Positions 41,377-64,000 of a DNA stretch of 64,000 nt are shown here, one piece after another. The translations under genes and the position numbers were made by a program. Source of the DNA: Candidatus Saccharimonadota bacterium (lineage in GTDB: Bacteria; Patescibacteriota; Saccharimonadia; Saccharimonadales; Saccharimonadaceae); NCBI GenBank assembly GCA_030527585.1, contig JAUNAL010000001.1, forward strand, positions 64,193 through 128,192, in the 5' to 3' direction. How positions within the stretch are numbered: the stretch's first letter is position 1; each line of letters starts with the position of its first letter. The notes beneath the pieces are model-generated. The model saw only the letters and a list, made by a program, of their open reading frames with translations, was not told the origin of the DNA and made no database searches.

Positions 41377-41403
41377 AAAACCGAACAACTTGTTCGGTTT
41401 TTT
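41377..41403 (+). terminator. Rho-independent terminator
   Basis: AAAACCGAACA-act-TGTTCGGTTTTT. Confidence 0.8.
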
Positions 41404-41479
41404 CTTATTCTCAACAAAGTTGACCAAAACACACGCTTATGCTAATCTAATAACAGAAAGGTCAATAAAAACAAGCACT

Positions 41480-43298: not shown

Positions 43299-43315
43299 CA
43301 ACAAAGGAGGACTTC

Positions 43316-44224
43316 ATGAAAACAATACAGAAAAATCTTACGACGGTTACAACTGCTACGTTACTTACTCTAACGTCCTCAATCGGCGTTTCCGCTTGGG
43401 GACCAGAACGTCCAACATACACTAACGAGGAGCCTGCCAAAAGCGCCACCTTTAACTCAATCACGAATAACGCCGCAGTGGGTGACGAGCGAGACTTCGT
43501 CCGCATCGAAGAGAAATCATCCGGGCGCGCCTATTCTAGTAATATCGAAATTGAAGCCGGGAAGCAATATGAAGTTTTCATCTACTATCACAACGACGCT
43601 TCCGCAACTTTTAACAGCGAAAAATATAATTTCGCCGGCGTCGCCCGCGATGTTAGACTCTCGTCAAACTTCCCAGATTCCTTAGCCGCCGGAGAGACCG
43701 GACAGGTTGTCGGCACTATCTCATCTTCAACCACAACCCCGGCTAAAGTTTGGGATGAAGCCAACATCACCGCTAAAGAAGCCGTCACCCTGCACTACGT
43801 CGAAGGCTCCGCCATTATCTCAAACTCGCAGGCTTCAAATGGCTCCGTCCTCCCAACCTCCCTCTTTTCCGACACTGGCACCTTCCTCTCGATTGACTAC
43901 ACTGGCGAAAATGCCGCCACCCTCGCCGGCCTAATCCCAGGTTGCGACGAATATAGCGGAGTCGTTACTTACACAATCCAAACTAAGGCAGTTGAGGGCC
44001 TAGTTCCAAATCCAGAAGACCCGACACCGGAGGACCCGACCCCAGAAGAACAACTCCCAGACGAAATCGTCAAAACTGGCCCCCTCGAGATCACCCTCGC
44101 GATTCTTATTATCCTCGGTATCGGTGGCGGATTCTTCTACCTCTGGAAAACCCGCAAAACCCTAAAAACCGTCGAAGACGTCGTATCGGGCAAAGATGTA
44201 GGGGAAAATAGCAAAAATTCCTAA
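43316..44224 (+). CDS. Secreted or surface protein with a C-terminal xKTG-TM-basic anchor
   Basis: Signal peptide, WGPERPTYT, FNSITNN...GDERDFV, PEDPT repeats, VKTGP + TM + KTRK. Confidence 0.8.
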   Translation: MKTIQKNLTTVTTATLLTLTSSIGVSAWGPERPTYTNEEPAKSATFNSITNNAAVGDERDFVRIEEKSSGRAYSSNIEIEAGKQYEVFIYYHNDASATFNSEKYNFAGVARDVRLSSNFPDSLAAGETGQVVGTISSSTTTPAKVWDEANITAKEAVTLHYVEGSAIISNSQASNGSVLPTSLFSDTGTFLSIDYTGENAATLAGLIPGCDEYSGVVTYTIQTKAVEGLVPNPEDPTPEDPTPEEQLPDEIVKTGPLEITLAILIILGIGGGFFYLWKTRKTLKTVEDVVSGKDVGENSKNS

Positions 44225-44318
44225 GCGAAACATGAAGAAAATCGGAAGCTCCGATTTTCAGAGCGGACACCCGTAAAGACGGGCTGTCCGCGGGTTTCGC
44301 ATGGAATTTTTCTATTCC
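44205..44318 (+). repeat. Structured dispersed element, copy 3
   Basis: CCTAAG/CATGG loop; core nearly identical to 17328-17412 with a compensatory hairpin change. Confidence 0.85.
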
Positions 44319-44375
44319 TATATTGCATTTTAGATAGATGTATGCTATAATACACAAAGTTAACAAAGGAATTAT

Positions 44376-44684
44376 ATGAAGAAAGCAGTTATCCTCGTTG
44401 GCGGGAAGCAATATCTCGTCGAGGAAAAAGAGACCCTACGGGTGGACCTCCTCCCGGCAGGAACCAAAGAGCTCGAGACTGATGCTTTACTCGTTATCGA
44501 CGGCGACAATGTAACCGTTGGCACTCCAACAGTAAAAGGCGTAAAAGTTTCGGCAAAGGTTGTAACCGAAGAAGTTAAAGGCGACAAAATTCGCGTCATC
44601 CGCTACCATAGCAAAAAACGCGTCCATAAAGAAAACGGTCATCGCCAGAAATACACCGAAATTGAAATCGTCAAAATCGGCTAA
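44376..44684 (+). CDS. rplU: 50S ribosomal protein L21
   Basis: AVI..GGKQY.V, GHRQ.YT. Confidence 0.96.
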   Translation: MKKAVILVGGKQYLVEEKETLRVDLLPAGTKELETDALLVIDGDNVTVGTPTVKGVKVSAKVVTEEVKGDKIRVIRYHSKKRVHKENGHRQKYTEIEIVKIG

Positions 44685-44691
44685 ATTCTAG

Positions 44692-44716
44692 AAAATCCCC
44701 CTCCCGGGGGGATTTT
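44692..44716 (+). terminator. Rho-independent terminator
   Basis: AAAATCCCCCT-ccc-GGGGGGATTTTT. Confidence 0.8.
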
Positions 44717-44841
44717 TGATGCCTAAGAACCTACCAAACATTTCGTCTATTAGACGCTTTGTCCCCCACCGCCTGATTCTCATATTAGACAAAGTGTCTA
44801 ATATGTTAAAATCACCCCAAGTGGAGAAGGAAGGATTTTTT

Positions 44842-45492
44842 ATGCTTAAAATTGTGGTTTTTGATAGCGGGTATGGAGGCGAACTTTTTGCTGATCTGCT
44901 TGAAGAAAAACTAGGAGTAGTCGAAGTCATCCGAGTTATCGATTGGCGGAACGCCAAGTTCTATCTCGACAACCCTCGCGAAGCCCGCAAACTCGCAGAA
45001 ATTGCCCTCCGCCCTTATCTAGGTCGCGTTGATTTAATTTTCTTTGCAAACCACATACTTTCCATGACTAGCTTAAAATATTTTTGTCGCCACTATAAAC
45101 AGCAACCCTTCCTTGGTTTTAAACTCCCCGCTCCAAAAGACCAAAAGCGCACGTTAATCCTCGCCACTAAAGCCGTTGCTAAAACTATTAGCTTTAAAAA
45201 TTATCTCTTCCGCCTCAAGGCCGACCGGATGATCCTCACTCCTGACGCATGGCCAGCATTAATCGATGACGGAGAATTGACTTTGAATGAAATTTCTTCC
45301 ACGCTAGAATCCATAAAAAGTTTTAATCCTGAACAAATCATGCTCATTTGCGGACAATTCAGTGATATTAAACCCGAGCTTCGCTCCGCTCTCTCCGCCA
45401 ACATCAAAATCCAAGATTCTTTCGACGACTCGTTTCGTGAAGTTTGCAAAACCCTCAAAATTCGTGGCGCAGCCGGAAAGAAGAAGTATTAA
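44842..45492 (+). CDS. Degenerate glutamate racemase-like protein
   Basis: KIVVFDSGYGG and ILAT; ACNT replaced by ANHI and GCTHY by ICGQF. Confidence 0.6.
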   Translation: MLKIVVFDSGYGGELFADLLEEKLGVVEVIRVIDWRNAKFYLDNPREARKLAEIALRPYLGRVDLIFFANHILSMTSLKYFCRHYKQQPFLGFKLPAPKDQKRTLILATKAVAKTISFKNYLFRLKADRMILTPDAWPALIDDGELTLNEISSTLESIKSFNPEQIMLICGQFSDIKPELRSALSANIKIQDSFDDSFREVCKTLKIRGAAGKKKY

Positions 45493-45497
45493 TCGTG

Positions 45498-45523
45498 AAA
45501 AATCCCGCCTCGAAAGGCGGGAT
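45498..45523. terminator. Terminator between convergent genes
   Basis: AAAAATCCCGCCT-cgaa-AGGCGGGAT. Confidence 0.75.
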
Positions 45524-45543
45524 AAAGGAGTTATCCATAGACT

Positions 45544-46266
45544 TCAAGTCCCATTCTCTGCTGGTTTAACGGACTTTTGCTCGAATTTCATGGTGCCATA
45601 TTCCGCTTGCATTTCCTCGTCCGTGAATTTATGCAACTCTCTCATCCAGTTCAAATTGCTTTTCAACATCACGCGTAAGACATGAAACCGGTCCGACCAT
45701 TCTGGCCAACTTCTTTTCGCACGTTTTAGCATTGGCAAGAGCAAATGATAGGTCTCTCGCCAATTCTTTAACGCGCGCTCACGATCGAACACGCCAATCG
45801 ATGATTCGAGATTATCCTCTCGATCTAAACCCTTACAAAACAATGCATACGGGCTCCCCAAAAGTTCTTCGAAGTAGCGACGTTTGACATCCGCTTTTGT
45901 TAAATCGTAATTCTTGGTCACAATCGTCATTAATGAAACCGCATTACGAACCTCTGGACTTTCGGAGACATTTTGAATCGGTACACCGCAATCTTCAGGG
46001 ACGTCATGCAACAAAAGTGTTGCAATTGCCTTATCATCACGAACCCCCATCCCAATAGCGAGGCAAGCCATGCTAATTGGATGAGAGATATAAAGCGTCC
46101 CATCATCTCTTCTGGTTTCTCCGTGTGATCGAATCGCAAGCTCGAGCGCAGCCTGGCTCAGTGGCAGAGGCGCCACACCGCCATTTAGAATGCCTCGGAG
46201 ATAATACTCTTGGATTTGAACATCCTGATCGGTAACTTGTTGCCTAAAAACTTCTTTGCCCATCAT
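45544..46266 (-). CDS. Stand-alone HD-domain (p)ppGpp hydrolase-like protein (SAH/Mesh1-like)
   Basis: AIRSHG..RRDDG..YISHP, LLHDVPED, K..DREDNL; SD GAAGGGGG before the ATG at 46266. Confidence 0.78.
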   Translation of the reverse strand: MMGKEVFRQQVTDQDVQIQEYYLRGILNGGVAPLPLSQAALELAIRSHGETRRDDGTLYISHPISMACLAIGMGVRDDKAIATLLLHDVPEDCGVPIQNVSESPEVRNAVSLMTIVTKNYDLTKADVKRRYFEELLGSPYALFCKGLDREDNLESSIGVFDRERALKNWRETYHLLLPMLKRAKRSWPEWSDRFHVLRVMLKSNLNWMRELHKFTDEEMQAEYGTMKFEQKSVKPAENGT

Positions 46267-46407
46267 AGAGCCCCCTTCCGAAAAAGATTCACTTGCAAAT
46301 TGATAACTTCCTAAAGCAATATTCTTGCTTTGGAGTATTATATCATAAAACTCTGAGAAAATCAAGACCTACGCATAATATCATCTTCATGTTATAATAT
46401 AAGCATT

Positions 46408-47190
46408 ATGGAGAAAGTGGCTAAGGTAATTTGTGTGACGAACCAAAAAGGCGGCGTAGGGAAGACTACGACGGCGGTCAACTTGAGCTACTATCTCGCA
46501 AAAGACAAATTTAAGACCCTGTTAATTGATTTCGACCCTCAGGGAAACGCAACTTCTGGACTCGGCATCGAAAAAAACGACCCTAAAAAGCTCGGAATGA
46601 CGATGACCGAAGTAATTCTCGGAACTGCCGACTTGAAATCTGCCATTCGCGAAACTAAATATAAAAATTTCCATCTCGCGCCTGCGACTCCCGAGCTTGC
46701 TAATGCCGAAGTTGAGATTACCGGAATGAACAAAAAATTTGTTCGCCTGCGTGACGCGATTAGAACGGTCCAGAACGCATACGACTATATTATTATCGAC
46801 CTCCCGCCATCCCTGTCCCTTCTTACTGTCAACGGGATGATCGCCTCGAACTATCTTTTGCTCCCAGTCCAGACCGAATTTTATGCCCTCGAAGGCGTTG
46901 CACAGCTTCTTGAGTCTATGAAACTCGTCATGAAACAAGCCAACCCAAATTTGAAACTTCTTGGCGTTCTTGCTACGATGTATGATCGAAGAACTAGCCT
47001 CTCTACTGGCGTCCTCGAAGAGATAAAAAAATATTTTAAGGCACTTACTTTTAATACGACAATCCCGCGCAACGTTCGTGTCGCTGAGGCCCCAAGCCAC
47101 GGCGTCCCAGTCGGAGCTTATGATAAATTTAGTAAAGGTGCTAAAGCTTATAAAGAGTTTACAAAAGAAGTAGAGGAGAGAACTAAATGA
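46408..47190 (+). CDS. parA: Chromosome partitioning ATPase ParA/Soj
   Basis: NQKGGVGKTTT, DPQGNAT, IPRNVRVAEAPSHG. Confidence 0.96.
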   Translation: MEKVAKVICVTNQKGGVGKTTTAVNLSYYLAKDKFKTLLIDFDPQGNATSGLGIEKNDPKKLGMTMTEVILGTADLKSAIRETKYKNFHLAPATPELANAEVEITGMNKKFVRLRDAIRTVQNAYDYIIIDLPPSLSLLTVNGMIASNYLLLPVQTEFYALEGVAQLLESMKLVMKQANPNLKLLGVLATMYDRRTSLSTGVLEEIKKYFKALTFNTTIPRNVRVAEAPSHGVPVGAYDKFSKGAKAYKEFTKEVEERTK

Positions 47191-48032
47191 GCATTAAAGG
47201 ACTAGGACGTGGCTTTGAGGCCTTAATCCCGACCGATTTGGTCGACGAAGAATTTGATTTAACTGCGACCGAAGACAAAAAGGAAAGTAAACTTAAAGAG
47301 CTAAAAATTGAAGACATCATTCGCGACGAAGAACAGCCTCGCCGTGAATTTAATGCCGAGGCAATCGAAGCGCTCTCCGCTTCTATTAAGGAACATGGCG
47401 TTCTCCAGCCAATCGTCGTGACGCGGGAAGATGGAAAATATAAAATTGTTGCTGGCGAACGACGCTGGCGTGCTTCGAAGCTTGCTGGGCTTGAAAAAAT
47501 CCCAGCCATCATTCGGACTTTGGATTCCCAAAATCGGCTCGAGCTTTCAATTATTGAAAACGCCCAGCGTGAAGACCTTAATGCGATCGAACTCGCGACC
47601 GCTTACGCAAAATTAAAGAATCAATTTAATTTAAGTTCTGAAGATATTGCCGCTAAAGTTGGAAAATCCGAAGCCTCAATCCAAAACACTCTCCGCCTTC
47701 TTAACCTCCCAGAAGATGTTAAAAAAATCATGGTGAAGGAGAAATTAACCGAAGGCGTCATGCGTCCGTTAGTTTCACGTGACGAAACTACTATCAAGAA
47801 AGTTCTTCCGAAGATTATTGAAGAGGGTTGGACGGCTCGTAAAGTCGAACGTTATTTTCAGGACAACAAGAAAAAATCCTCCGCCGCTGCTATTAAAAAA
47901 CAAGAATTCAATAAAGACGAAGACGCATTAACTGCTAAGTATAATATTCCAGTCAAGATTTCCGGTCGCGCCCTCGCTTTCAAATGCAAAAACGAATCTG
48001 ATCTTCGCGCACTCATCAAAAACTTGCTATAA
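47187..48032 (+). CDS. parB: Chromosome partitioning protein ParB
   Basis: KGLGRG, QPRR.F, GVLQPI, AGERRWRA, IENAQREDL. Confidence 0.96.
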   Translation: MSIKGLGRGFEALIPTDLVDEEFDLTATEDKKESKLKELKIEDIIRDEEQPRREFNAEAIEALSASIKEHGVLQPIVVTREDGKYKIVAGERRWRASKLAGLEKIPAIIRTLDSQNRLELSIIENAQREDLNAIELATAYAKLKNQFNLSSEDIAAKVGKSEASIQNTLRLLNLPEDVKKIMVKEKLTEGVMRPLVSRDETTIKKVLPKIIEEGWTARKVERYFQDNKKKSSAAAIKKQEFNKDEDALTAKYNIPVKISGRALAFKCKNESDLRALIKNLL

Positions 48033-48039
48033 TTAATCT

Positions 48040-49524
48040 ATGAAAGAGAAAAATTCTCCACGCGTTGAGAAGGCAATCGAAATTGCAAAGCAAGCGCACG
48101 AGGGGCAATTCCGCAAAACCGGCGAGCCATATATCGTCCATCCTCTTGCTGTCAAAAAAATCCTTGAAGAGTGGCACATGGACGAGGACACGATTATCGC
48201 TGGAATTCTTCACGACACAGTAGAAGATACCGATTTAACTCTCGAAGATATCCGCAAGGAATTTGGCGATTCAGTCAGTTTTCTCGTTAATGGTGTTACT
48301 AAGATCTCGACCGCCCGAACTGGTATGCGCGACATTGATTCTTATCTCCCAGAAACTAAAGACAACTTCCTGCGTCTTCTTATTGCTCTTGGCGACGATA
48401 TTCGCGTCCTAATTATTAAACTCGCTGACCGTCTTCATAATCTCCGTACTCTCTCCGCCCTTCCTCCAGACAAACAACGTAAAATCGCCAAGGAATCGCT
48501 CGAGGTTTTTGCCCCCCTCGCCGATCGTCTTAACATGGGACGACTTCGTGTCGAAATGGCAGATATTGCTTTTAAATATGTCGATCCAAAACGCTACGAT
48601 TATCTGAAGGAGTTGATCGAGAAACACAACGAATCCGCCGAAAAAAGTCTGAAGAAAATCGAAAAAGAAGTCTCGGATGCTCTTAGGAAAGAGAAAATTG
48701 ATTTCGAGCTAGCTGGTCGCGTGAAGTCGGTTTACTCACTTCACAGAAAACTTGCCAAACACAACCAAAACATGGGCGAAATTTATGACCTTACCGCTCT
48801 CCGCGTTATTGTAGATGATATTACGGATTGTTATCTTACGCTCGGCATTATTCATTCACTTTACACCCCAATGGGCGGTCGCATCAAGGATTATATTGCC
48901 GTTCCGAAACAAAACGGTTACCAATCTCTCCATACAACCGTCATCACGAAAGATAAAAAAATTGTCGAATTCCAAATCCGGACCAAAGAAATGCATGAAT
49001 TCGCCGAACATGGTCTTGCAGCAAGCTTTTACTATAATGAACAAAAGGTTACAGAGAATTACAAAAAAGGGAAGATTGAACATCTCCCGACCAATCTTCT
49101 CTGGATTACCGAACTCCAGATGACCGCCGCGAAGCTTCGCGAAGGCAAAAAAGTTGATTTAAGAAAATTAAAAATTAATCTTTTTGCCGATAAAATTTTC
49201 GTCTATACTCCAAAAGGCGATATTATCGACCTTCCGAAAGGTGCTCTGCCGCTCGACTTTGCTTATCGACTCCATTCGGAAATTGGCGACCACGTTATCG
49301 GCGTTAAAATCAATGGTAAAATGAGTAATTTGAACAGGAAACTAGAACAAGGTGATATCGTCGAGATTTTGACTTCCAAGAACCAAGTCCCAAATTCTTC
49401 TTGGCTCAGTAAAATCCTAACTTCTCACGCTCGCCAAAAACTCACGCGGGCTCTTAATGCCGCAAATCGCGAGCCTGCCGAAAAACCAAAAAAATCTTCT
49501 CGCAAAAAACAAAAAAGGTCTTGA
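48040..49524 (+). CDS. rel: RelA/SpoT bifunctional (p)ppGpp synthetase/hydrolase (HD-SYNTH-TGS, no ACT domain)
   Basis: GEPYIVHP, LHDTVED, KLADRLHN, YQSLHTT, EFQIRT, FVYTPKG..DFAY. Confidence 0.93.
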   Translation: MKEKNSPRVEKAIEIAKQAHEGQFRKTGEPYIVHPLAVKKILEEWHMDEDTIIAGILHDTVEDTDLTLEDIRKEFGDSVSFLVNGVTKISTARTGMRDIDSYLPETKDNFLRLLIALGDDIRVLIIKLADRLHNLRTLSALPPDKQRKIAKESLEVFAPLADRLNMGRLRVEMADIAFKYVDPKRYDYLKELIEKHNESAEKSLKKIEKEVSDALRKEKIDFELAGRVKSVYSLHRKLAKHNQNMGEIYDLTALRVIVDDITDCYLTLGIIHSLYTPMGGRIKDYIAVPKQNGYQSLHTTVITKDKKIVEFQIRTKEMHEFAEHGLAASFYYNEQKVTENYKKGKIEHLPTNLLWITELQMTAAKLREGKKVDLRKLKINLFADKIFVYTPKGDIIDLPKGALPLDFAYRLHSEIGDHVIGVKINGKMSNLNRKLEQGDIVEILTSKNQVPNSSWLSKILTSHARQKLTRALNAANREPAEKPKKSSRKKQKRS

Positions 49525-49592
49525 CTTTCCGCGGGGGGGGGTATCATAAAAGCATAAAGGTCATATACAAAAATAAACACGAAAGGAAAAAG

Positions 49593-51446
49593 ATGAAAAT
49601 TCATCATGGCAGAACCAGTGCCAAACGCAATTTGCGCATTTTCGCCGCCGGTTCTGTTTTGCTCGGCGCCGCCGGTTTCGGCCTCGCCCAGCTCGCCAAA
49701 ACTCAATCGCCGGTCGATGCGGTAACTGACGACTATATATCAATTAATATTGTCAACTTTCCGGAGTCTCTTCAGCCTAATTTCTTCCCGGACCTCTCGG
49801 CTCCAGAAATTCCGAAAAGTGATGGCCCCCAACTTTTTTCTACACATAGCAGCACATCGGACCTACAACAGGCAGTCGTGGATTATATGAGGGATGTCAT
49901 AGGATCCTATGACGGCAGTAAGCCAGGTTATAACATTGCTTGTGCCGATGCTAAAACCCAGGAGGAGATCAATAGTTGTTTACTTAACGGGTCTTTCTAT
50001 ATCCCCATTAATGATCCTTTCGGTCTTGATTTAGATAACATTGATAATGTAAGTAGTATTTATGAAAATCTCTTTTACAATACCCTATATGAAAATCCTG
50101 AACTCTTTTACGCCATGACTGGTGTATATACTGGCGTAGCTGAGGCTCAGAGTGGAGAAAAAGTAGTTTTGGTATTCCCATGGATCCTTGAAGAGTTTGA
50201 CGCTGCCTCTGAACTAAACACGGGAAAAACCAAATTTAATAATGCTATTGCCGATTGGGAGAAAGAAATTTTCGGTGACGACGTAGACGAAATGTCGGAT
50301 TTGGAGAAAGCTTTATCCGCCTATAGCGTGATGATGCGCCGCAATAATTATACAGGAGTATCACTTTTACAGCAAAATAAGTTGATGAGTGAGGATGTTC
50401 CTTACAGCATGAAGGCCCACACAGCTTATGGTGCGCTCGTCGACCACGATTCGGTCTGTCAAGGCATCGCTGCTGCATTGAATCTTTTGCTAAATCGTGC
50501 AGACGTTTCCACCGTTACGACCGTATCAGATAACCATGCCTGGAACCACGTTGAAATCAATGGGAAATATTATTTAATGGATGCCACTTGGGATGATCCT
50601 TTCCCAGCAACGTTCTATAAATCTGTATATTTGAACTTCTTGCAAAGCGACAGTGCATCTGGCCACGATGCTGCCTCTGGGCAGGAAGGCACTAACCGCT
50701 TTGGTATAACAGCGCCAGACGCTTATACGGGCGAAAATTTCTGGATTAATTCCGGAACGCCAATTATTTGGGACAATGACGCAGATGCTTTAACTATGGT
50801 TGACAATATAGCTCAAATTTCTAAGGCAAGCAATGGCGCCATAAAAATCGAGCCAGCTAGTGCGACCACGTTTTCGACCGTTAACGTCGCTGAAGACGGC
50901 GAAGTTACGAAAAACGCTTATGCCGAAATCCAAGCTCCAGTATTCGATGCTGTTGAGCATGACGATGTTATTTACTATACTACCACGAATGGGAACATCG
51001 CTTCATACGATTTGACCACCCAGTCCGCGGGCGATTACAATAAAGCGGGCACATGGACCGATGACATTAGAAGTCTATATCTACTCCAAATCAACGACGG
51101 CGCATTGCAAAAACTCTCCTTTAACTGGAACACCGGCGCCTACGAACCTACCAATTTGATTCAGCTCGGCGAATCCGATACAAATTCCCCGAATGACACT
51201 CCAGGCGAAGGCGACCCGGGCAACGAAGACCTCGAAGAAGATGAAGACGGCGAATTCATCCCGGTCCCGAATACCGGCACAACCGATACTCCAGCCGCTC
51301 CGAAAACTGGTCAAGCCGGTAGCTTCGACATCCAGGCAGTTGCCGCGTCGTCCATCTCGACCATCGCAATCCTCTTTGTTATCGCAAAGATCGGCTACCG
51401 CTCATTCTCCCGCCACCTCACTCGCCGCCGCTTCATGCGCGACTAA
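49593..51446 (+). CDS. Surface protein with a transglutaminase-like Cys-His-Asp domain
   Basis: VCQGIAAA, HAWN.V, DATWDD; N-terminal signal; VPNTG and APKTG + TM + Arg-rich tail. Confidence 0.82.
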   Translation: MKIHHGRTSAKRNLRIFAAGSVLLGAAGFGLAQLAKTQSPVDAVTDDYISINIVNFPESLQPNFFPDLSAPEIPKSDGPQLFSTHSSTSDLQQAVVDYMRDVIGSYDGSKPGYNIACADAKTQEEINSCLLNGSFYIPINDPFGLDLDNIDNVSSIYENLFYNTLYENPELFYAMTGVYTGVAEAQSGEKVVLVFPWILEEFDAASELNTGKTKFNNAIADWEKEIFGDDVDEMSDLEKALSAYSVMMRRNNYTGVSLLQQNKLMSEDVPYSMKAHTAYGALVDHDSVCQGIAAALNLLLNRADVSTVTTVSDNHAWNHVEINGKYYLMDATWDDPFPATFYKSVYLNFLQSDSASGHDAASGQEGTNRFGITAPDAYTGENFWINSGTPIIWDNDADALTMVDNIAQISKASNGAIKIEPASATTFSTVNVAEDGEVTKNAYAEIQAPVFDAVEHDDVIYYTTTNGNIASYDLTTQSAGDYNKAGTWTDDIRSLYLLQINDGALQKLSFNWNTGAYEPTNLIQLGESDTNSPNDTPGEGDPGNEDLEEDEDGEFIPVPNTGTTDTPAAPKTGQAGSFDIQAVAASSISTIAILFVIAKIGYRSFSRHLTRRRFMRD

Positions 51447-55855: not shown

Positions 55856-57898
55856 ATGGGACCTACACAAAATCCGGCACCAATTAATTCTGTGCCTCAA
55901 ACTGAATCGCCAAAGAAAAAACAATATCTTGGGCTAAAAATCACACTCGCTTCACTATGTTTCACGATTGCCGGGCTCATAGCCGCCATCGCAGTTTTTG
56001 CCATAACTGGCCAGGACCAAAATAGTGGACCAGTCACTCGAACATTCATGATTTATATGACCGGATCAGACCTTGAATCTGATAACGGGGCTGCTACCCA
56101 TGAGCTATCCGGAATCGATCCCAAAGAAGTCGATCTAGAGAATATTAACGTTATTATGATTGCCGGAGGCTCAAAGCGCTGGAGAAATAATTATATTGAT
56201 GCCGACGAAACCTCAATCTACCAGCTTACCTCGAGCGGCTTTACTAAGGTTAAAACTCAAAATCTCATGAACATGGGCGAGCCAGAAACCCTAAGCAGCT
56301 TTCTCAAATATGTAACCGATAATTATAAAACCAAAGAATACGAGCTAGTTTTCTGGAATCATGGCGGAGCCCTTGAGGGAAGCGAATACGATCAGTTGCA
56401 CGGTGATGACGCATTATCTCTCCAGGAAATTACGGAAGCCCTATCAAATACCACATTCAATAAAGATAATCCCATTAATACTGTTATTTTTAGTACTTGC
56501 CTTAACGGCACGATTGAGAACGCGAATGTCTTTAAAGAGCATGCCCGTTATTTTGTCGCCTCTGAAGAGACTTCTTGGACAAGCCCGACGGGAAGCGACT
56601 TTAGCTTTATTAACGATGTCGAACTTGCCACTAAAAATGAAGAAATTGGTGATTCATTCATCAAAAATTACAAAGAAAAAATGGTCAATATGCGAGACAT
56701 GTATAATGCCTACAACGTTGATTATGACATCTACTCAACCTACTCGCATATTAATTTGACTAAACTCGATGCACTAAATAAGGCTGTTGACGAATTCTTT
56801 GCCGATATCAATGTTGCCTCGAACTATAGCTCAATCGCCAAAATTCGGAGCAACCTTCTTCAGTATGGGGTAGTGGAAAGTCATCCTAGCACATTACGCT
56901 TCGATACGGTTGATTTATATAATTTAGTTGAACAATTAAAGCCTTTCTCGCCAGACAAGGCCCAAAAAGTTCTTGATGAATTTAAAAATGTCGTTATGTA
57001 TAATTATTCGACCGATGCCGATTCGAGAGGGCTTAGTATTTATTTCCCATTTAACGGCAGTAATCGCAGTCAAGAACAATTCCTTTCTATCTATAATGAA
57101 ATTAGCAGTCTGAAGAACTACAATAAGTTTATTGAGAATTTTAACGCCACTAAACTCGCTGGCGCTTCGAACCGACTTTCATTTTCGAAAAATCATACCC
57201 AAGCAACCACGACCAGTGAAGGTGCCGATTTTGAATTAGTGCTGACCGACGAACAGCTTGCCAATTTCACCAAAGCCAATTATATGGTTTGGCGTGACAA
57301 TCATGACGGGACTTTCCGCCCTGTCTACAAGGGTATTGAGGTTGCTCTGGAAGGAAATACCTTAAAGGCTCAGATTAAAGACCGCCAACTAGTCGTCAAT
57401 GACGCCGAAGCGACTACTGATGAAATGCAAGAATATGGCGGGGGATTGCTTACTTTGTTTGAAGATGAAGTAACGGATAGTTACATTAAATATACCACAA
57501 ATGTTACGCTTACGGATCTGGATGCGGACACTGCGATTGGGATTGATTTGATTGCCGCTAGCCTAAATCTTATCCTGAATAAAGAAACTGGTGAAGTTAG
57601 TTTAGGCGAAACAACATTAATCAGTGATGGATTCGCTAGCGGAACGGTCGTCGACCTCAATGAATACGACACTATTGGCTTCGCAACAAGCAGCTACCAT
57701 ATCCAAAACGCAGACGGCTCTTTCAATGAAGACTGGTCGACCACCTCGGATGGTATTATTACCGGCTGGGAATGCGAGGTTGGGTCATGTGACTTCACCA
57801 TCGAGGATTTCGATAGCGACCAAGATTATTACTGTGTCTTCCATATCAAAGATATCAACAATAATGTTTATTATTCAAATTTAATAAAGCTAGAGTAG
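55856..57898 (+). CDS. Clostripain-family (C11) cysteine peptidase, membrane anchored
   Basis: T.MIYM.GSDLES, FWNHGG (His), FSTCLNG (Cys), VASEE, GLSIYFP. Confidence 0.88.
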   Translation: MGPTQNPAPINSVPQTESPKKKQYLGLKITLASLCFTIAGLIAAIAVFAITGQDQNSGPVTRTFMIYMTGSDLESDNGAATHELSGIDPKEVDLENINVIMIAGGSKRWRNNYIDADETSIYQLTSSGFTKVKTQNLMNMGEPETLSSFLKYVTDNYKTKEYELVFWNHGGALEGSEYDQLHGDDALSLQEITEALSNTTFNKDNPINTVIFSTCLNGTIENANVFKEHARYFVASEETSWTSPTGSDFSFINDVELATKNEEIGDSFIKNYKEKMVNMRDMYNAYNVDYDIYSTYSHINLTKLDALNKAVDEFFADINVASNYSSIAKIRSNLLQYGVVESHPSTLRFDTVDLYNLVEQLKPFSPDKAQKVLDEFKNVVMYNYSTDADSRGLSIYFPFNGSNRSQEQFLSIYNEISSLKNYNKFIENFNATKLAGASNRLSFSKNHTQATTTSEGADFELVLTDEQLANFTKANYMVWRDNHDGTFRPVYKGIEVALEGNTLKAQIKDRQLVVNDAEATTDEMQEYGGGLLTLFEDEVTDSYIKYTTNVTLTDLDADTAIGIDLIAASLNLILNKETGEVSLGETTLISDGFASGTVVDLNEYDTIGFATSSYHIQNADGSFNEDWSTTSDGIITGWECEVGSCDFTIEDFDSDQDYYCVFHIKDINNNVYYSNLIKLE

Positions 57899-57912: not shown

Positions 57913-58713
57913 TTAAGGACGAAGGCCCATGCCGCCCTCAAGCGTAATCGTTTCGCCGGACATATATTTAAAGTCCGGCGTTGCGATTTGTACGCAAACA
58001 CGCCCAATTTCGGTTTCTGGATCCGCGTAGTGACCCATTGGCGGCATATGAACATTTGCTTTATAGGCTTCTGGGTATTCTTTCTCGAACTTCTCGAGTT
58101 GCGCCGTCCAAGCCAACGGACAAATTACATTCACATTAATTCCATCTTTGCCCCACTCGGTTGCGGCGACGCGGGACAAACCACGGATACCTTCTTTTGC
58201 TGCCGCATAGGAAGACTGCCCAGCATTACCAAACAATCCCGCACCAGACGCAAAATTAATTACCGAACCCTCAGCCTCTTTTAGGTAAGGATAACACTCC
58301 CGCATGTAATAAAATGCTGCATAAAGCCCAGAATAAAGTGCCAGATCAAATTGTTCACGAGTTTGGTCTGCCAGCATCACACCCGAAGCCGAAGCCTGGG
58401 CATTATTAATTAAGACATCAATTCGCCCGAACTTTTCAATCGTCTTTTCGACAACTTTTTTAATGCGCGCTTCCGCCTCAGCGCTATTATCGACATCCGC
58501 CTGCACGCACAAAACCTCAACATTATAAAGTCGTTCAAGTTCTTCTTTGGCATCTTCTAGTTTCTTTAGATTCCTTCCAGTTATTACTAAATTCGCCCCC
58601 TCTTTTGCATAGGCAGTTGCAATCCCGTATCCAATCGAGCCGCAGCGACCATCGGAAAGGACGGAACGCCCTCCCCCAGTAATAATCACAGTTTTTCCAG
58701 TAAATAGTCCCAT
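57913..58713 (-). CDS. SDR oxidoreductase resembling clostridial 12alpha-hydroxysteroid dehydrogenase
   Basis: TGGGRSVLSDGRCGSIGYGIA (inserted Gly motif), NNAQASASG, YAAAKEGIRGL, C-terminal TLEGGMGLRP; 266 aa. Confidence 0.8.
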   Translation of the reverse strand: MGLFTGKTVIITGGGRSVLSDGRCGSIGYGIATAYAKEGANLVITGRNLKKLEDAKEELERLYNVEVLCVQADVDNSAEAEARIKKVVEKTIEKFGRIDVLINNAQASASGVMLADQTREQFDLALYSGLYAAFYYMRECYPYLKEAEGSVINFASGAGLFGNAGQSSYAAAKEGIRGLSRVAATEWGKDGINVNVICPLAWTAQLEKFEKEYPEAYKANVHMPPMGHYADPETEIGRVCVQIATPDFKYMSGETITLEGGMGLRP

Positions 58714-58756
58714 AATATCCTTATTATAGCATAGATAATGATGTTATAATAAGGAT

Positions 58757-59683
58757 ATGCAGATTGAACTTACCCAATTTTACATCCGCCTCGGCGCGAT
58801 TGGTCTAATTATTGCACTCGGTTTTTTGCTTGGTAAATTAAAACTAATTAGCGAAAAGACTAATAGGGAATTAACTAATCTTTTACTCGTTGTTTTTATG
58901 CCGGCCTCTTTATTTGCGGCTTTTCCGACCAACTATGACGAGGCTTCGGCCGGGATTTTCTTTGCCGGCTTAGCCGGCGGCGCGCTCGTCATGCTGTCCT
59001 TAATTATGGTTTCGAAACTTATTTTTAACTCGAAGCTTTATAAGGAGAAAAATCTTCGCTATGAGTCCCAATTTGCATTAGTTTTTAATAATGCGACTTT
59101 TCTTGGCTACCCAATCGTCGCTAGCACCTTTGGTCCGCAGGGAATTTTGGCTTACTGTGGATTTATTATTGCTTTTAATATCGCGCTCTTTTCATACGGC
59201 ATCTGGCTCTTTGAACGTAAAATTTCTTGGCGCTTAGCAAGGAGTGTCATTTTAAACCCGAATATTATCGCGGTCTTGCTTGGCATGGTCCTTTTTCTAT
59301 TAAGTATTAAACTACCAGATATTGTTTCAGATTCAGTCTCCTACGTTGGTCCAGCCACTACTCCACTATCATTAATTTGTATTGGTTTCATGCTGTCCCG
59401 TGCGGAACTTTTGAAGATTTTTAAAAAGTGGCGGCTTCTTCTTACTTCACTCGTTCAACTTGTCCTGGGCCCGCTCATTACTTGGGGGCTCCTGACCCTC
59501 TTAAAGTTTCCAACGGAAGTTATTCAGGTCTGCGCTTTGATTCAGGCTCTCCCAACCGCAACTTCGCTAGGTCTCTTCGCTGTTAAATATGGCGGCAATG
59601 AAAGCGAGTCTTCTGAACTTGTGGCGGTTTCAACTCTGCTTTCGATTGGGACCATGCCTCTGATGATGCTCCTACTTTTCTAA
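58757..59683 (+). CDS. AEC (auxin efflux carrier) family transporter
   Basis: FMPA.LF, N..FLGYPI, NPNIIA, PLSLICIG, ALPTA, STLLSI.T.P. Confidence 0.9.
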   Translation: MQIELTQFYIRLGAIGLIIALGFLLGKLKLISEKTNRELTNLLLVVFMPASLFAAFPTNYDEASAGIFFAGLAGGALVMLSLIMVSKLIFNSKLYKEKNLRYESQFALVFNNATFLGYPIVASTFGPQGILAYCGFIIAFNIALFSYGIWLFERKISWRLARSVILNPNIIAVLLGMVLFLLSIKLPDIVSDSVSYVGPATTPLSLICIGFMLSRAELLKIFKKWRLLLTSLVQLVLGPLITWGLLTLLKFPTEVIQVCALIQALPTATSLGLFAVKYGGNESESSELVAVSTLLSIGTMPLMMLLLF

Positions 59684-59703
59684 AAATATAGTATAATGTT
59701 TCC

Positions 59704-60711
59704 ATGAACACACCATGGTCTTATAAGAACTCTTGGAAAAACGCCATTGATAACGACTGGTGTAGGCTAATCTTTAAACTGCAAGCACTAATCCAGATTG
59801 AAACGGTTAAATTTTACGAAGCAAGAGGGATTGTTCCGCTGCTTTTACCGGTGACAACAGGAAGTATTTCTAGTCCAATGGGCTTAGGGAGCGATTCGTT
59901 GCCTGTGCAAATAGAGCTAGATGGGCGAAAGACTTATCTTGCAGATTCGATGCAATTTTTATTGGAATATGGTTGTCGATTTTTCGAAAAAGGGTGTTAT
60001 TATATTATGCCGACTTTTCGCGGAGAGCCGGTTAACGCACGACATTTAAAACAGTTCTTTCATAGCGAAGCGGAGATCCCCGGGTCTCTTGACGACGTGA
60101 TTCAGCTGACCGATTCATACATTAAACATCTATCGGCAGCAATATTGGAAAAATACGGCGTTAAGATCCGAGAGATAGTTGGCAATACGGAACATATTGA
60201 AAATTTAATTAAAAATCAAATTCCGAGGTTTGCTTTTGATGAAGTGGAAAAAATTTTGGAAGAAAAGTGTTCGGATGATTTGAGAGAGTGTATAGAATAC
60301 AATGACGGTTTTCGTAGCATAACGAGTGCTGGAGAAAAAGCAATTATGGAGATAGTTGGCTCCCCGCTCTGGATTACCCATTATGATAAAAATGCAGTCC
60401 CATTCTATCAAAAGACAGACGAAAAATATAATGGGCAAGCCAAAAATGCTGATCTACTCTTAGGGATTGGAGAAACTGTTGGTTGTGGGGAGCGAAATTC
60501 TACAGCAAAGGAGGTAATAGAATCTTTAAGAGAACGTCAAATTTCGCCAGGAGAATACCAGTGGTATATTGAACTTCGTGAGAAATATCCTTTACAGACT
60601 TCAGGCTTTGGACTCGGGATTGAGCGATTTCTGTTATTTATTTTGGGGCATGACGATATTCGTGATGCGCAAGTAATTAGAAGGTTTAACGACGGAAAGG
60701 ATATTTTATGA
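59704..60711 (+). CDS. AsnRS-like catalytic domain without an anticodon domain (asparagine synthetase AS-AR-like)
   Basis: YLADSMQ, FRGE....RHL.QF.H.EAE (motif 2), GETVGCGER, YQWY, TSGFGLGIERF (motif 3); only 335 aa. Confidence 0.85.
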   Translation: MNTPWSYKNSWKNAIDNDWCRLIFKLQALIQIETVKFYEARGIVPLLLPVTTGSISSPMGLGSDSLPVQIELDGRKTYLADSMQFLLEYGCRFFEKGCYYIMPTFRGEPVNARHLKQFFHSEAEIPGSLDDVIQLTDSYIKHLSAAILEKYGVKIREIVGNTEHIENLIKNQIPRFAFDEVEKILEEKCSDDLRECIEYNDGFRSITSAGEKAIMEIVGSPLWITHYDKNAVPFYQKTDEKYNGQAKNADLLLGIGETVGCGERNSTAKEVIESLRERQISPGEYQWYIELREKYPLQTSGFGLGIERFLLFILGHDDIRDAQVIRRFNDGKDIL

Positions 60712-61787
60712 AAAAACCAGCGGCATTAAAAAGAGGAGATAAAATTGCGATTGTTTCGCTATCGGATGGCGTGCTTGGTGAGCCGTTTGCAAAGCACGAA
60801 GTTGTTTTATTGGAGAAACGGTTACGGGAGGAGTTTGGTCTAAATTTTGCCTATATGGATAATGCGAAAAAGGGGATTGAATACTTAAAGAAACATCCTG
60901 AAGCACGGGCAAAAGATTTAATTCAGGCGTTTACGGACAAAAACATTAAAGCAATTTGGACGGTACTTGGCGGAGATGATACGTTTCGGATTTTGCCGTT
61001 TCTAATGAATGATGAGTTTAAAAAAATTGTTCAAGAAAATCCGAAGGTTTTTCTTGGTTTTTCAGATACGACAAACAACCATTTGATGTTATATAAATTG
61101 GGTCTTTTGACTTATTATGCGCCATCGTTGCTTGCGGATGTTGCGGAGCTTGGCCCTGAGATTTTTCCGTACACAAAAGAATGGTTGATGGAATTATTTG
61201 AACCGAACACGAAGAAACAAATTGCTAGCAGTCCAGTTTGGTATGGCGAGCGGAAGAGCTTTGGTGAGGATCAGCTGGGAGTTAGGCGACCAGAATATCC
61301 AGAAAAACATGGTTTTGAATTTGTACGAGGCAAAGGAGTTGTCGAAGGAAAGTTACTCGGCGGCTGTTTGGATAGTCTTTACGAAATGCTGAAATATGTA
61401 CGCTATGATGATCAAAAGGAAATCTTTGAGAAATATCCAATCTTTCCAGAAAAAGAAATTTGGCGAGATAAAGTTTTGTTTATCGAGACGAGTGAAGAAA
61501 AACCGACACCAGAAAAATATGAAAAAATGCTGGAGGCATTAGAGGCACGAGGGGTTTTTGAAGCGATTTCTGCGATGATTGTCGGTAAACCGCAGGGCGA
61601 AGTTTATTATGAAGAATATAAAAATATTTTGTTGCGGTTTGCGGAGAAGTATAATTTGCCGTTCGTTTATAATTTGAATTTTGGACATAATGCGCCGCGA
61701 ATGGTTTTGCCGTATGGGCAAAAAATACTGATTAATTTTGATGAGCAAAAAATAACATTAGTTGAGGAGATGGTGGAGAATGGATAA
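60708..61787 (+). CDS. S66 peptidase (LD-carboxypeptidase / MccF-like)
   Basis: LK.GDKIAIVS, GGDD, FLGFSDTT (Ser), GKLLGGC, FIETSEE (Glu), FGH..P (His). Confidence 0.92.
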   Translation: MKKPAALKRGDKIAIVSLSDGVLGEPFAKHEVVLLEKRLREEFGLNFAYMDNAKKGIEYLKKHPEARAKDLIQAFTDKNIKAIWTVLGGDDTFRILPFLMNDEFKKIVQENPKVFLGFSDTTNNHLMLYKLGLLTYYAPSLLADVAELGPEIFPYTKEWLMELFEPNTKKQIASSPVWYGERKSFGEDQLGVRRPEYPEKHGFEFVRGKGVVEGKLLGGCLDSLYEMLKYVRYDDQKEIFEKYPIFPEKEIWRDKVLFIETSEEKPTPEKYEKMLEALEARGVFEAISAMIVGKPQGEVYYEEYKNILLRFAEKYNLPFVYNLNFGHNAPRMVLPYGQKILINFDEQKITLVEEMVENG

Positions 61788-62898
61788 TAAAAATCTCCCA
61801 AATGCGCTAAGCCGATTGCCTGAAGAAATTGGATGTTCTGCGCGAATGCGCCAGTATGGTCAGGTGGCACTGGACGCGCTGAAGAATTTATCAAATGCAG
61901 ATACCGAATCGCTGTTTATGGCGATAAACGAAGAGCGTGCAAAAACCGTGACTGCGCGCGAAATTCTTGAAGGTAATCGGTTTAATGTGCCGTCCAGCGT
62001 TGATGTACGTGCCTTGCATGATGTCGAAGGAATGTTTTATGACAAAATGCCGGATGTTGATTTTATTGATATCGCGCCATTGCAGCCAATGGGCCTGAGT
62101 ATGTTTTTGACTGGCACGAGCGAGAAAAAAATTGTTTCTAGCACTCGGAATTCTGAGGCGAATGCTGACCCGACAAACTCTTTATTCAGAATCGCATATA
62201 ACGAATTCAAAGATACGCCAGTTCGCATTGCGACGCATTGCCGATCGACTCGAGCGCAAAACTTTGGTGAAAACAGTAAGTTGTTGCCACATTTTAAAAC
62301 TTTTTGTCAAGTTTCTGTTGGCCGTCAAGGTTTACGTCATGGCGAGGAGGAGATAAGGTCGCTTCTAGCCCACCTAAATTCAGAATTATCAGTTTTAAGG
62401 TCTTTAATTCCAGAAGAAAATTTATCAGTTTCTGTTAGCAATGTATTATTCTCGAAAGAGTTAGTCAGGATCGGCATGCTAGACAAGGAGACCTTGCGAA
62501 AAGATATGCGAAATTATTCGCAGGAGAAATATGATGTCAGGGCTATCAAAATGCGTGATAGCGGCGAGGTCTTGCGAGTTTTGGAGGAGCAGGGCGTGCA
62601 GAGCGGAGTGAAAATTTTTAAGCTGTTTGACGAGGTCCTGAAAGAGGATTTCCCGCATTTGGTTGATAAGCTTGAGATTGATCTTAATCGAGTTGCTGGA
62701 ATGGATTATTATAAACATATGTGTTATAAGGTTGTTGGTTTTACTGAGGAAGGCGAGCCAATTCCGCTGGATGATGGCGGAACTACGGATTGGGCGCAAA
62801 AAGTTGGGGGTCGGAAAGATATTTATACAGTTACTTCCGGCGTCGGCACGGAATTATTAACTAAAAATTTCGTAAGAAAGGATGAGAATGGAAATTAA
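61780..62898 (+). CDS. Uncharacterised protein with class II aaRS-like catalytic motifs
   Basis: ADPTN.L, RSTRAQ.F.....HF (motif 2-like), R..GMDYY, DGG.TDW...SGVGTE.L (motif 3-like). Confidence 0.55.
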   Translation: MDNKNLPNALSRLPEEIGCSARMRQYGQVALDALKNLSNADTESLFMAINEERAKTVTAREILEGNRFNVPSSVDVRALHDVEGMFYDKMPDVDFIDIAPLQPMGLSMFLTGTSEKKIVSSTRNSEANADPTNSLFRIAYNEFKDTPVRIATHCRSTRAQNFGENSKLLPHFKTFCQVSVGRQGLRHGEEEIRSLLAHLNSELSVLRSLIPEENLSVSVSNVLFSKELVRIGMLDKETLRKDMRNYSQEKYDVRAIKMRDSGEVLRVLEEQGVQSGVKIFKLFDEVLKEDFPHLVDKLEIDLNRVAGMDYYKHMCYKVVGFTEEGEPIPLDDGGTTDWAQKVGGRKDIYTVTSGVGTELLTKNFVRKDENGN

Positions 62899-63712
62899 TA
62901 AAATGAATTATTCTCAATTTGTGGGGCTAGTAGATGAACGAAATCGTCCATCTGGCGGAATTAGAACCGTCCAAATTGCAACCCTGAACGCTAGAATTGA
63001 TAGAAATAGCAAGGTGCTTGAGATTGGGAGTAATACGGGTTTTACCTCAGTCAATATCAGTTTACTGACGGGCGCCGAAGTTGTTGGGATTGATTATAAC
63101 GGACCTTCCGTAGAAAAGGCCCGAGAGTACGCAAACAATATGGGTGCCGAAAGAGTGAAGTTTCTGGAAGCCGACGCGACACGATTGCCATTTGGCGATG
63201 GTGAGTTTGATATGGTTTGGTGCAGCAATGTCACTTCTTTTATTGAAGATAAAGATAAGGCAATTGCAGAATATTTGCGTGTTTTGAAGCCATTTGGGAC
63301 CTTAATATTGGTGCCGATTTATTATCATATTTCGCCGCCAGAAAAAATCAGAAAAGCTGTTTCTAATGCAATTGGCTGCGAAGTTGGTGTTTGGGACAAG
63401 CAATTCTGGTTAGATGCTTTTAAAAGAAATGCATACAAACATAATGTTGCTTTGGAAAAATATTTTGATCAAGAGTTCCAATATCTAGATCGGAGTGCGA
63501 ACTTGAAAGAATATACAGAATTGCAATTAAGTAAAATCGATAGGAATAATTATTCGGACGAAGAATGGGTGAAGATTCAAGAAAAGGCAAAATATTTTTA
63601 TACTTTATTTAATGAAAATAATTTTAAATATGCAAGATATTCTGTGATTTTGTTGCAAAAGCGATTGGTTGAAGAAGAAGCCGAATTATTTATTTCAAGG
63701 GCAGTAGAATGA
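62888..63712 (+). CDS. Class I SAM-dependent methyltransferase
   Basis: VLEIGSNTG, VVGID, ADATRLPF....FD, EYLRVLKP.G. Confidence 0.92.
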   Translation: MEINKMNYSQFVGLVDERNRPSGGIRTVQIATLNARIDRNSKVLEIGSNTGFTSVNISLLTGAEVVGIDYNGPSVEKAREYANNMGAERVKFLEADATRLPFGDGEFDMVWCSNVTSFIEDKDKAIAEYLRVLKPFGTLILVPIYYHISPPEKIRKAVSNAIGCEVGVWDKQFWLDAFKRNAYKHNVALEKYFDQEFQYLDRSANLKEYTELQLSKIDRNNYSDEEWVKIQEKAKYFYTLFNENNFKYARYSVILLQKRLVEEEAELFISRAVE

Positions 63713-64000
63713 TAGAAATTAGGGAAGCCAGACCAGAGGACGCAAGCGAAATTTGCCAGATCCAGCGGGCTACATGGATTCAAGCTTATGTCTCGCAAGA
63801 ATATGAGGTGACCAGAAAAGATCTAGAAGAATATACAAAGAAGTGGACATCCCCGGAGAATGTAGAGGATTTTTCGAAATTAATTGCTAGCCAGACGGAA
63901 AATGATTTTTGGTTGGTGGCAGAATGTGATGGACGAATTGTAGGACATATCAAATCGGGGAAGCTGAGAGAGGTTGTATTTATCCATATGTTGTACGTAC
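63709..64000 (+). CDS. GNAT acetyltransferase, truncated by the window end
   Basis: MIEIREARPEDA..I..I...TW..AY ... WLVAECDGRIVG ... IHMLYV; ATGA overlap with the methyltransferase. Confidence 0.85.
   Translation, partial: MIEIREARPEDASEICQIQRATWIQAYVSQEYEVTRKDLEEYTKKWTSPENVEDFSKLIASQTENDFWLVAECDGRIVGHIKSGKLREVVFIHMLYV

Follow-up and report, generated by a model that had tools for sequence, protein, structure and literature searches.

At the end of a 64,000-nucleotide stretch of a Candidatus Saccharimonadota genome (GenBank assembly GCA_030527585.1, contig JAUNAL010000001.1, positions 64193–128192; the whole stretch is called the window below), we found a cassette of five plus-strand genes, g1–g5, running from position 59704 to the window edge. 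The cassette is probably a minimal, horizontally moving module for the biosynthesis of, and immunity to, a mimic of aminoacyl-adenosine monophosphate (aminoacyl-AMP). We favor this reading because the nearest characterized relatives of three of the five genes belong to aminoacyl-AMP-mimic families, and because the set travels as a unit whose sister clusters carry spare aminoacyl-tRNA synthetases (aaRSs), ligases, decarboxylases, and pumps. The basis in hand consists of the gene identities, the protein folds, the intact catalytic motifs of g1, g2, and g3, the conservation of the gene set, and kinship to the agrocin 84 (agn) and microcin C (mcc) clusters; from these we infer that the cassette produces a compound rather than only detoxifying one.

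The listing of open reading frames (ORFs) gives the following genes, where successive neighbors overlap by 4, 8, 17, and 4 nt (the 8 nt being counted from the g3 ATG; a TTG at 61762 is an alternative g3 start):

59704–60711, plus strand: g1, AgnA-type class IIb aaRS catalytic core, 335 aa (PF00152, identity to AgnA)
60708–61787, plus strand: g2, MccF-type S66 serine peptidase, 359 aa (PF02016 and PF17676)
61780–62898, plus strand: g3, HisRS/HisZ-fold class IIa core, 372 aa from the ATG at 61780 (fold match)
62882–63712, plus strand: g4, AgnB1/MccD-type class I S-adenosylmethionine (SAM)-dependent transferase, 276 aa (Methyltransf_11/25/31)
63709–64000, plus strand: g5, GNAT N-acetyltransferase, cut by the contig end (PF00583)

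An earlier, sequence-only reading had described five coupled genes with overlapping stops and starts, encoding two aaRS-like domains, an MccF-like peptidase, a methyltransferase, and a GNAT, and had inferred a pathway for making an aminoacyl-nucleotide or small modified peptide, or for protection from one. The ORF listing confirms the coupling. The pathway gains support from kinship to AgnA, AgnB1/MccD, and MccF and from the conserved gene set. The peptidase stood up to a check of its aromatic residue, the GNAT to a comparison with Pfam and with homologs, and the methyltransferase could be sharpened to the AgnB1/MccD type. The second aaRS-like domain, g3, is likewise borne out, detectable by fold only.

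An AgnA-like core paired with an AgnB1/MccD-like transferase

The g1 protein is 42% identical to AgnA of plasmid pAgK84 over 317 aa, its full length (E 4e-88), and matches PF00152 (tRNA-synt_2; E 4e-31) without an anticodon-binding domain. Motif 2 (R106, E108) and motif 3 (G301–R308) are invariant across 10 AgnA-like proteins. Against solved structures, g1 matched AsnRS (E 5e-22) and, partially, archaeal asparagine synthetase A (AsnA; E 4e-12, residues 199–326). Both AsnRS and the archaeal-type enzyme (AS-AR; PDB 3p8t/1nnh) resemble g1 in having a class IIb core with motifs 2 and 3 intact, and AS-AR likewise has no anticodon domain; the partial match to AS-AR contrasts with the full-length match to AgnA. 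The top NCBIfam models of g1 are those of AsnA, which is also the name that the Prokaryotic Genome Annotation Pipeline (PGAP) gives to AgnA itself, yet g1 falls below the cut-off of every AsnA model (NF005053, 257.5 bits vs. a cut-off of 322). We therefore rejected plain AsnA as its identity.

The g4 protein is 29% identical to Escherichia coli MccD over 216 aa (E 1e-21), N-terminal extension included. In a tblastn search against 72,556 plasmids, its top matches were on B. pseudomycoides pBTZ_2 (41% identity), AgnB1 of pAgK84 (37% identity, 97% coverage), a Peribacillus plasmid, and mccD of Yersinia and E. coli. Kinship to MccD is clear; the transferred group may be methyl or aminocarboxypropyl. 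The cassette in the window has no pyridoxal phosphate (PLP) decarboxylase, though some of its relatives have one.

An MccF-type peptidase and an acetyltransferase

The g2 protein carries the Peptidase_S66 (PF02016) and S66C (PF17676) domains, and it matched the MccF-like structure 4e94 with E 1.7e-98 and E. coli MccF with E ∼1e-21. When g2 is aligned with six S66 proteins from clusters and with E. coli MccF, its S119, E260, and H327 are invariant and correspond to the MccF catalytic triad (S118, E243, H311), and F185 aligns with W186, which stacks on adenine in MccF (residue roles from PMC8323819). The position of MccF N220 is Asp in g2, so the preferred acyl side chain may differ. MccF itself cleaves the aspartyl–N bond and thereby gives immunity (PMC8323819).

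We also considered LdcA, the muropeptide LD-carboxypeptidase, as an identity for g2 and rejected it, as g2 reaches only 43.6 bits against the LdcA NCBIfam equivalog (cut-off 378) and matches the MccF-like structure far better.

Within the clade of the window's cassette, S66 proteins share 59%–63% identity. Their identity to a stand-alone gene on an L. lactis plasmid is 47%, and to the S66 proteins of out-of-clade modules it is only 20%–32%; the nearest sequences to g2 are stand-alone S66 proteins from Streptococcus and Lactococcus. Being closer to a stand-alone gene than to the out-of-clade modules, the S66 appears to be a recruited, exchangeable hydrolase, which would fit an immunity role.

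The 97-aa part of g5 inside the window matches PF00583 (E 6.7e-4). Weak relatives in the PDB are streptothricin, N-terminal, and RimI-type acetyltransferases, the nearest being streptothricin and N-alpha-acetyltransferases (E 5e-5 to 2e-4), and full-length homologs of 173–174 aa close the cassette at two other loci (L002 and L003).

A HisRS-fold family outside Pfam

The g3 protein matched no Pfam family, tRNA-synt_His included, and no NCBIfam model. An AlphaFold2 model built from a 40-sequence alignment has a predicted local distance difference test score (pLDDT) of 93.6 and a predicted template modeling score (pTM) of 0.91, and supersedes a six-sequence model (pLDDT 69.6). In this model, residues 58–372 superpose on human HisRS (4phc_A) with Z 24.4 and a root-mean-square deviation of 3.5 Å over 299 residues (VIA-align); the comparison with HisZ gave Z ∼23, and HisRS/HisZ fold matches as a whole span Z 21–24. 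The model ends with the catalytic core, the anticodon domain being absent, and has an extra N-terminal helical segment of ∼57 residues. A PDB profile search with the g3 family returned weak HisZ/HisRS matches (E 0.015–0.03).

Residues R155, R158, H171, F172, R304, G333, G334, W338, and G356 are invariant in the 40 sequences. By profile alignment, R304 corresponds to HisRS R259, Y310/Y311 to the DYY motif, and G333/G334 to the GG motif; the equivalent of the motif 2 arginine is kept as well. HisRS and HisZ thus share their fold and these residues with g3, and differ from it in the Pfam tRNA-synt_His match, the anticodon domain of HisRS, the motif 3 arginine, and the partner HisG of HisZ.

Close homologs of g3 are rare, with only five among 5.8 billion proteins. 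An exhaustive search nevertheless recovered 799 cluster representatives with E < 1e-3, 390 of them with E < 1e-10. In the module loci scanned, and where the contig is long enough, the genomic partners of the family are always AgnA-like, SAM-enzyme, and S66 genes. Some members carry a fused C-terminal GNAT, as MccE combines a biosynthetic domain with an immunity GNAT. Our literature search found no paper on this HisRS-fold family, on the four-gene core described below, or on such clusters in Saccharibacteria; extended to AgnA/AgnC1 enzymology, a phosmidosine cluster, and HisRS-like biosynthetic enzymes, it turned up a single review from 2021 (PMC8323819).

Two of the proteins with a C-terminal GNAT are P0063 (554 aa, L009:745–2409) and P0132 (492 aa). 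None of the neighbors of the GNAT-fused homolog on L009 is a module gene by family hidden Markov models (HMMs) or Pfam.

The gene set recurs across distant genomes

We scanned metagenomes with a 14-sequence g3 alignment, which gave 22 loci whose ORFs were scanned with purpose-built HMMs, and added four other loci. Whenever the contig was long enough, the g3 homolog was accompanied by AgnA-like, SAM-enzyme, and S66 genes (22 + 4 loci). This set of four recurs on ∼20 independent contigs of 33%–69% GC, which places the co-occurrence far beyond chance, and it is kept down to 27% g3 identity, with four or more different gene orders and with the genes collinear, divergent, or convergent. The outcome that the sequence-only reading had set against itself, genes that do not co-occur elsewhere and that encode a plain asparagine synthetase and an LD-carboxypeptidase, was found on neither count.

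The same five-gene cassette is present at L002 and L003, with a partial copy on a 4.2-kb contig. GNAT genes are confined to the low-GC clade (L002, L003, L026, L027, L035, L036, L039). Among species-representative genomes, we found a single g3 locus, in a metagenome-assembled genome (MAG) of the Kineosporiaceae (L004, 68% GC); its genes are, in order, AgnA-like, B12-radical SAM, PLP decarboxylase, MccD-like, S66, the g3 homolog, and an MFS pump plus thioesterase. The L004 PLP decarboxylase is 21% identical to the N-terminal half of MccE, and a decarboxylase of this kind is next to the MccD-like gene in L004/L031 and L043/44. L031 additionally holds an L-amino-acid ligase and an MFS pump. On soil contigs L005–7, a PNP/Mtn-superfamily gene is followed by g3, AgnA-like, MccD-like, S66, and aminotransferase genes. 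Several distant modules have a SAM enzyme of a type other than MccD. The outer flanks vary among loci (ribonucleotide reductase [RNR], flavoprotein, serine hydroxymethyltransferase, ThyX, and others), so the module appears self-contained.

Individual loci show further variation. On L005, a second g3-family paralog (6014–7141, minus strand; E 8e-107 to the family HMM) comes after the aminotransferase and is followed by an S58 peptidase and a PALP enzyme. In L043/L044 (33% GC), two S66 genes flank the AgnA-like and MccD-like genes, with a PLP decarboxylase. At L027:1323–2405, a frameshift/stop or a sequencing error divides the S66 gene into two ORFs (1323–1646 and 1650–2405), the five-gene cassette being otherwise intact.

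Kinship to agrocin 84, microcin C, and plasmid clusters

Judged by its sequences, the closest known system to the cassette is the agn cluster of Rhizobium rhizogenes/Agrobacterium radiobacter K84 (AgnA, AgnB1, AgnB2, AgnC0–C7) rather than mcc. As in the cassette, AgnA lies beside AgnB1, which on pAgK84 stands between AgnA and the immunity LeuRS AgnB2, and the agnC operon also encodes an S66 peptidase. Both systems further have a second class II aaRS-like protein and are nonribosomal, without MccA or MccB. Literature on the agn genes lists AgnB1 as a SAM enzyme and proposes AgnA as the enzyme that forms the phosphoramide (N–P) bond, with AgnC1, a remote ProRS-like class II protein, as the other candidate; agn-like clusters have been reported in Ensifer and Actinobacteria through AgnC1 searches (PMC8323819).

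Agrocin 84 itself mimics an aminoacyl-AMP and contains an N-acyl phosphoramidate (PMC8323819), and the proposed product of the cassette would be of this kind. The two systems also differ. Only agn has the spare resistant AgnB2, AgnC0/C1, nucleoside- and sugar-tailoring genes, and an ABC exporter; only the cassette has a GNAT, and it has the HisRS-fold g3 in place of the ProRS-like AgnC1. The cassette comprises five genes against 17 in agn and sits in a Saccharibacteria-type genome of ∼0.7 Mb. A g3-family HMM search of pAgK84 gave no match.

In common with the mcc system (mccABCDEF) of E. coli plasmids, the cassette has a SAM enzyme of the MccD type, an S66 peptidase of the MccF type with the triad and an aromatic residue at the W186 position, and, as in MccE2, a GNAT. 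In microcin C, MccD transfers a 3-amino-3-carboxypropyl group, MccE1 acts in decarboxylation, and MccE2 in N-alpha-acetylation and immunity (PMC8323819); the pairing of MccD with MccE1 is paralleled by those cassette relatives that have an MccD-like gene with a PLP decarboxylase. The MccA precursor, the ThiF-type MccB, and the MFS pump MccC belong to mcc only, and whereas mcc builds on a ribosomal peptide, the warhead of the cassette would come from the aaRS-like enzymes. In line with the sequence-only reading, which saw neither MccA nor MccB, we found no conserved short ORF in the 450 nt upstream of g1 and six homologs, and no ThiF-like gene among the five cassette genes by Pfam.

Two plasmid clusters extend this comparison. 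A Peribacillus plasmid carries, in this order, MccD-like, AgnA-like, and S66 genes; divergent from them are genes for AlaRS, an AlaRS-related protein, an MFS pump, and an ATP-grasp ligase. This cluster, on the plasmid of Peribacillus psychrosaccharolyticus (L015, record 40749–50006), likely makes an alanyl-AMP mimic. We found no g3 homolog on that plasmid. Plasmid pBTZ_2 holds a group of MccD-like, AgnA-like, and ATP-grasp genes, and across the plasmid origin from it, a g3 homolog (27% identity, E 3e-32) is accompanied by another MccD-like gene and by GluRS, ATP-grasp, MFS, S66, and aminotransferase genes. The spare GluRS suggests a glutamyl-AMP mimic as the product of this cluster.

On pBTZ_2, the part with the g3 homolog (L017, 1010–11647) reads aminotransferase, S66, MFS, g3 homolog, MccD-like, GluRS, ATP-grasp, and the other part (L014, 128700–136526) ATP-grasp, AgnA-like, MccD-like, TauD, S-adenosylhomocysteine hydrolase. 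Around the record origin there appears to be either a single large aaRS-inhibitor cluster or a pair of adjacent ones, with an IS6 element between the two parts.

Genomic context of the cassette

The window belongs to a genome assembly of 598 kb in 37 contigs, with an estimated completeness of 84%. The genome has AspRS, LysRS, HisRS, and GatB; its PF00152 matches over the cut-off are only AspRS, LysRS, and g1, and PF13393 finds one HisRS. Neither AsnRS nor HisG was found in this 84% of the genome. With GatB present and AsnRS not found, Asn-tRNA is probably made by transamidation, so that free Asn would not be needed for charging, and the inventory as a whole makes a housekeeping role of g1 or g3 unlikely.

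A g3 homolog was present in none of 200 same-family genomes (0/200), 153 of which are at least 90% complete. At L026, a homologous cassette lies beside an RNR gene that is 75%–80% identical to the RNR of many same-family genomes. Together, these observations point to a cassette that is present in the lineage as a rare accessory element.

Base composition sets the cassette apart. The sequence-only reading had noted G-richness of the plus strand unlike most of the window, and the GC skew is indeed +0.25 over 60001–64000 and mostly negative over the rest. Each cassette gene has a coding-strand skew between +0.20 and +0.32, other plus-strand genes of the window reach at most 0.19, and GC content at third codon positions (GC3) is 0.33–0.42 vs. 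0.436 ± 0.044. The rarity in the family, taken with the deviant skew and GC3, indicates horizontal acquisition. Minus-strand genes of the window have coding GC skews of mostly +0.17 to +0.32, and plus-strand genes without the cassette −0.19 to +0.19, consistent with a window-wide replication-strand bias that the cassette violates.

The same reading had the operon continuing past the window edge. This holds for g5, which extends 89 nt further, and for nothing else: Retrieval of the downstream sequence showed that the contig terminates there, inside g5 and with no further genes, leaving 127 of ∼174 GNAT codons. In homologous cassettes, the GNAT gene is the final one. A terminator scan 3′ of the L026 GNAT found none.

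Two features lie directly upstream of g1:

58757–59683, plus strand: AEC-family (Mem_trans) transporter gene (PF03547, E 1e-31), 20 nt upstream of g1
59692–59697, plus strand: TATAAT −10-like box, 6 nt before the g1 ATG, read from the sequence

The TATAAT box is a possible, weak leaderless-type promoter for the cassette. No Shine-Dalgarno sequence precedes the g1 ATG, and a consensus promoter scan called no full −35/−10 promoter for the cassette. Similar A/T boxes stand directly before the first gene of homologous low-GC cassettes. The AEC transporter is a possible exporter of uncertain cassette membership; it is not conserved beside homologous cassettes, and its composition is host-like (coding GC skew −0.06). 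A short-chain dehydrogenase/reductase (SDR) gene on the minus strand and the AEC transporter gene on the plus strand form a divergent pair at 57913–59683 with a 43-nt spacer, and the start codons of both lie a few bases past a TATAAT-like box, as does that of g1, suggesting that leaderless-type starts are common in this genome. Just upstream of the pair, at 55856–57898, is the gene of a 680-aa clostripain-family (Peptidase_C11) protein.

Proposed pathway and alternatives

In the pathway that we propose, the product would be a stable aminoacyl-AMP mimic that blocks a tRNA synthetase, as agrocin 84 and microcin C do. Two adenylate-forming enzymes that have lost their tRNA-binding domains, g1 and g3, would build it. 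One of them would activate an amino or hydroxy acid and convert it to the carboxamide, as asparagine synthetase A does, and the other would form an N-acyl phosphoramidate by bonding the nitrogen of this amide to a nucleotide at its alpha-phosphate. The steps are assigned by analogy with AsnA, agn, and mcc, and g1 and g3 could divide the two reactions either way. The g4 enzyme would modify the phosphoramidate or the acyl part with a group taken from SAM, which in microcin C is 3-amino-3-carboxypropyl. For immunity, g2 would hydrolyze the acyl–N bond of free toxic nucleotide in the cytoplasm of the producer, and g5 would acetylate its alpha-amino group, as MccE2/RimL do. Export may proceed via the AEC transporter just upstream. 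The amino acid could be called neither from the S66 pocket, where Asp replaces MccF N220, nor from the pocket of g3.

A more specific version can be entertained only tentatively, and we hold it to be possible but doubtful: that an AgnA-type core and a HisRS-fold core build an N-acyl-phosphoramidate nucleotide directly from a free amino acid and a nucleotide, with neither a ribosomal peptide nor a ThiF enzyme; that the HisRS-fold family is the missing enzyme class; and that the compound is the weapon of an epibiotic Saccharibacterium against its host or competitors.

Several points weigh against the proposed biosynthesis and immunity module. Leu359 of g3 replaces the motif 3 arginine (R311 of E. 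coli HisRS), so its ATP chemistry may be unusual or absent. A homology of g3 to AgnC1 was rejected at the sequence level (hhalign probability 0.3% against the origin-spanning AgnC1 candidate ORF), and the agrocin 84 pathway, formation of the N-acyl phosphoramidate included, is itself stated to be unsolved (Travin, Severinov, Dubiley 2021; PMC8323819). No spare full-length aaRS lies in or beside the cassette, which also contains no dedicated exporter, ligase, or nucleoside-tailoring gene. To the C-terminal domain of MccE (MccE2), g5 shows only a generic GNAT likeness (E 0.016 over 69 aa). There would seem to be little point in an S66 peptidase destroying the product unless modification or export were quick, and no member of the module has a characterized product. 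Finally, the deviant composition of the cassette and its place at the end of a contig in a MAG make a mis-join conceivable, though L026 links a homologous cassette to an RNR of the family.

The cassette might instead make a small molecule that is not an aaRS inhibitor, such as an amino acid in amidated or N-acylated form, a metabolite resembling a dipeptide, a modified stem peptide of the cell wall, or, as with PoxA, an aminoacylated protein. Its enzymes would then be two class II ligases working without tRNA, a methyltransferase, a peptidase for trimming, and an acetyltransferase. Truncated class II aaRS paralogs are indeed known as amide ligases and protein aminoacylases (AsnA, PoxA/GenX, amino acid:carrier-protein ligases), S66 enzymes also act on peptidoglycan peptides, and both the non-MccD SAM enzymes of distant modules and the gaps in the cassette listed above would be at home in such a route. 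We nonetheless consider it unlikely, given that AgnA, AgnB1/MccD, and MccF, the closest characterized relatives, all come from clusters for aminoacyl-nucleotide antibiotics, that the spare LeuRS, AlaRS, or GluRS of sister clusters is a hallmark of self-resistance to aaRS inhibitors, and that g2 is so far from LdcA.

A resistance-only island, in which the S66 peptidase and the GNAT detoxify aminoacyl-nucleotides of neighbors or of the host bacterium and the aaRS-like proteins serve as decoys or sequesterers, strikes us as improbable. Stand-alone MccF and RimL/MccE2-type enzymes do protect without biosynthesis genes (PMC8323819), and g2, with its closeness to the L. lactis plasmid gene, looks like a recruited immunity gene. 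On the other hand, the catalytic motifs of g1, g3, and g4 are intact and these genes are inherited together with the S66 gene over wide distances, AgnA/AgnB1 homologs belong to clusters that are known or likely to be producers and that also carry ligases, decarboxylases, and pumps, and a decoy role is without precedent. That chance has placed housekeeping genes side by side (an archaeal-type AsnA, a muropeptide LD-carboxypeptidase, a regulator akin to HisZ, and a methyltransferase and an acetyltransferase with no link to them) would agree with the top NCBIfam model of g1, the PGAP name of AgnA, and the HisZ fold of g3, but is very hard to credit when every NCBIfam score is below its cut-off, HisG and AsnRS were not found in a genome (84% complete) that has GatB, and the set is conserved as a unit across phyla yet missing from all 200 same-family genomes.

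Significance

Agrocin 84 is the active principle of a commercial biocontrol strain used against crown gall. Relative to it, the new elements here are a HisRS-fold partner that is not ProRS-like, a GNAT in place of a spare aaRS, and an ultra-small genome. Among the loci that we examined, the five-gene cassette, or the four-gene core that it shares with its relatives, is the smallest natural setting of the AgnA/AgnB1 pair; since the pair comes with an uncharacterized HisRS-fold family, it offers a tractable system for reconstituting phosphoramidate chemistry. The cassette also gives functional context to a family of ∼800 clusters without a Pfam model. More broadly, it suggests that nonribosomal aminoacyl-nucleotide antimetabolites are far more widespread than the few known examples, and that they would reach the genome-reduced Saccharibacteria, which are thought to be nearly devoid of secondary metabolism.

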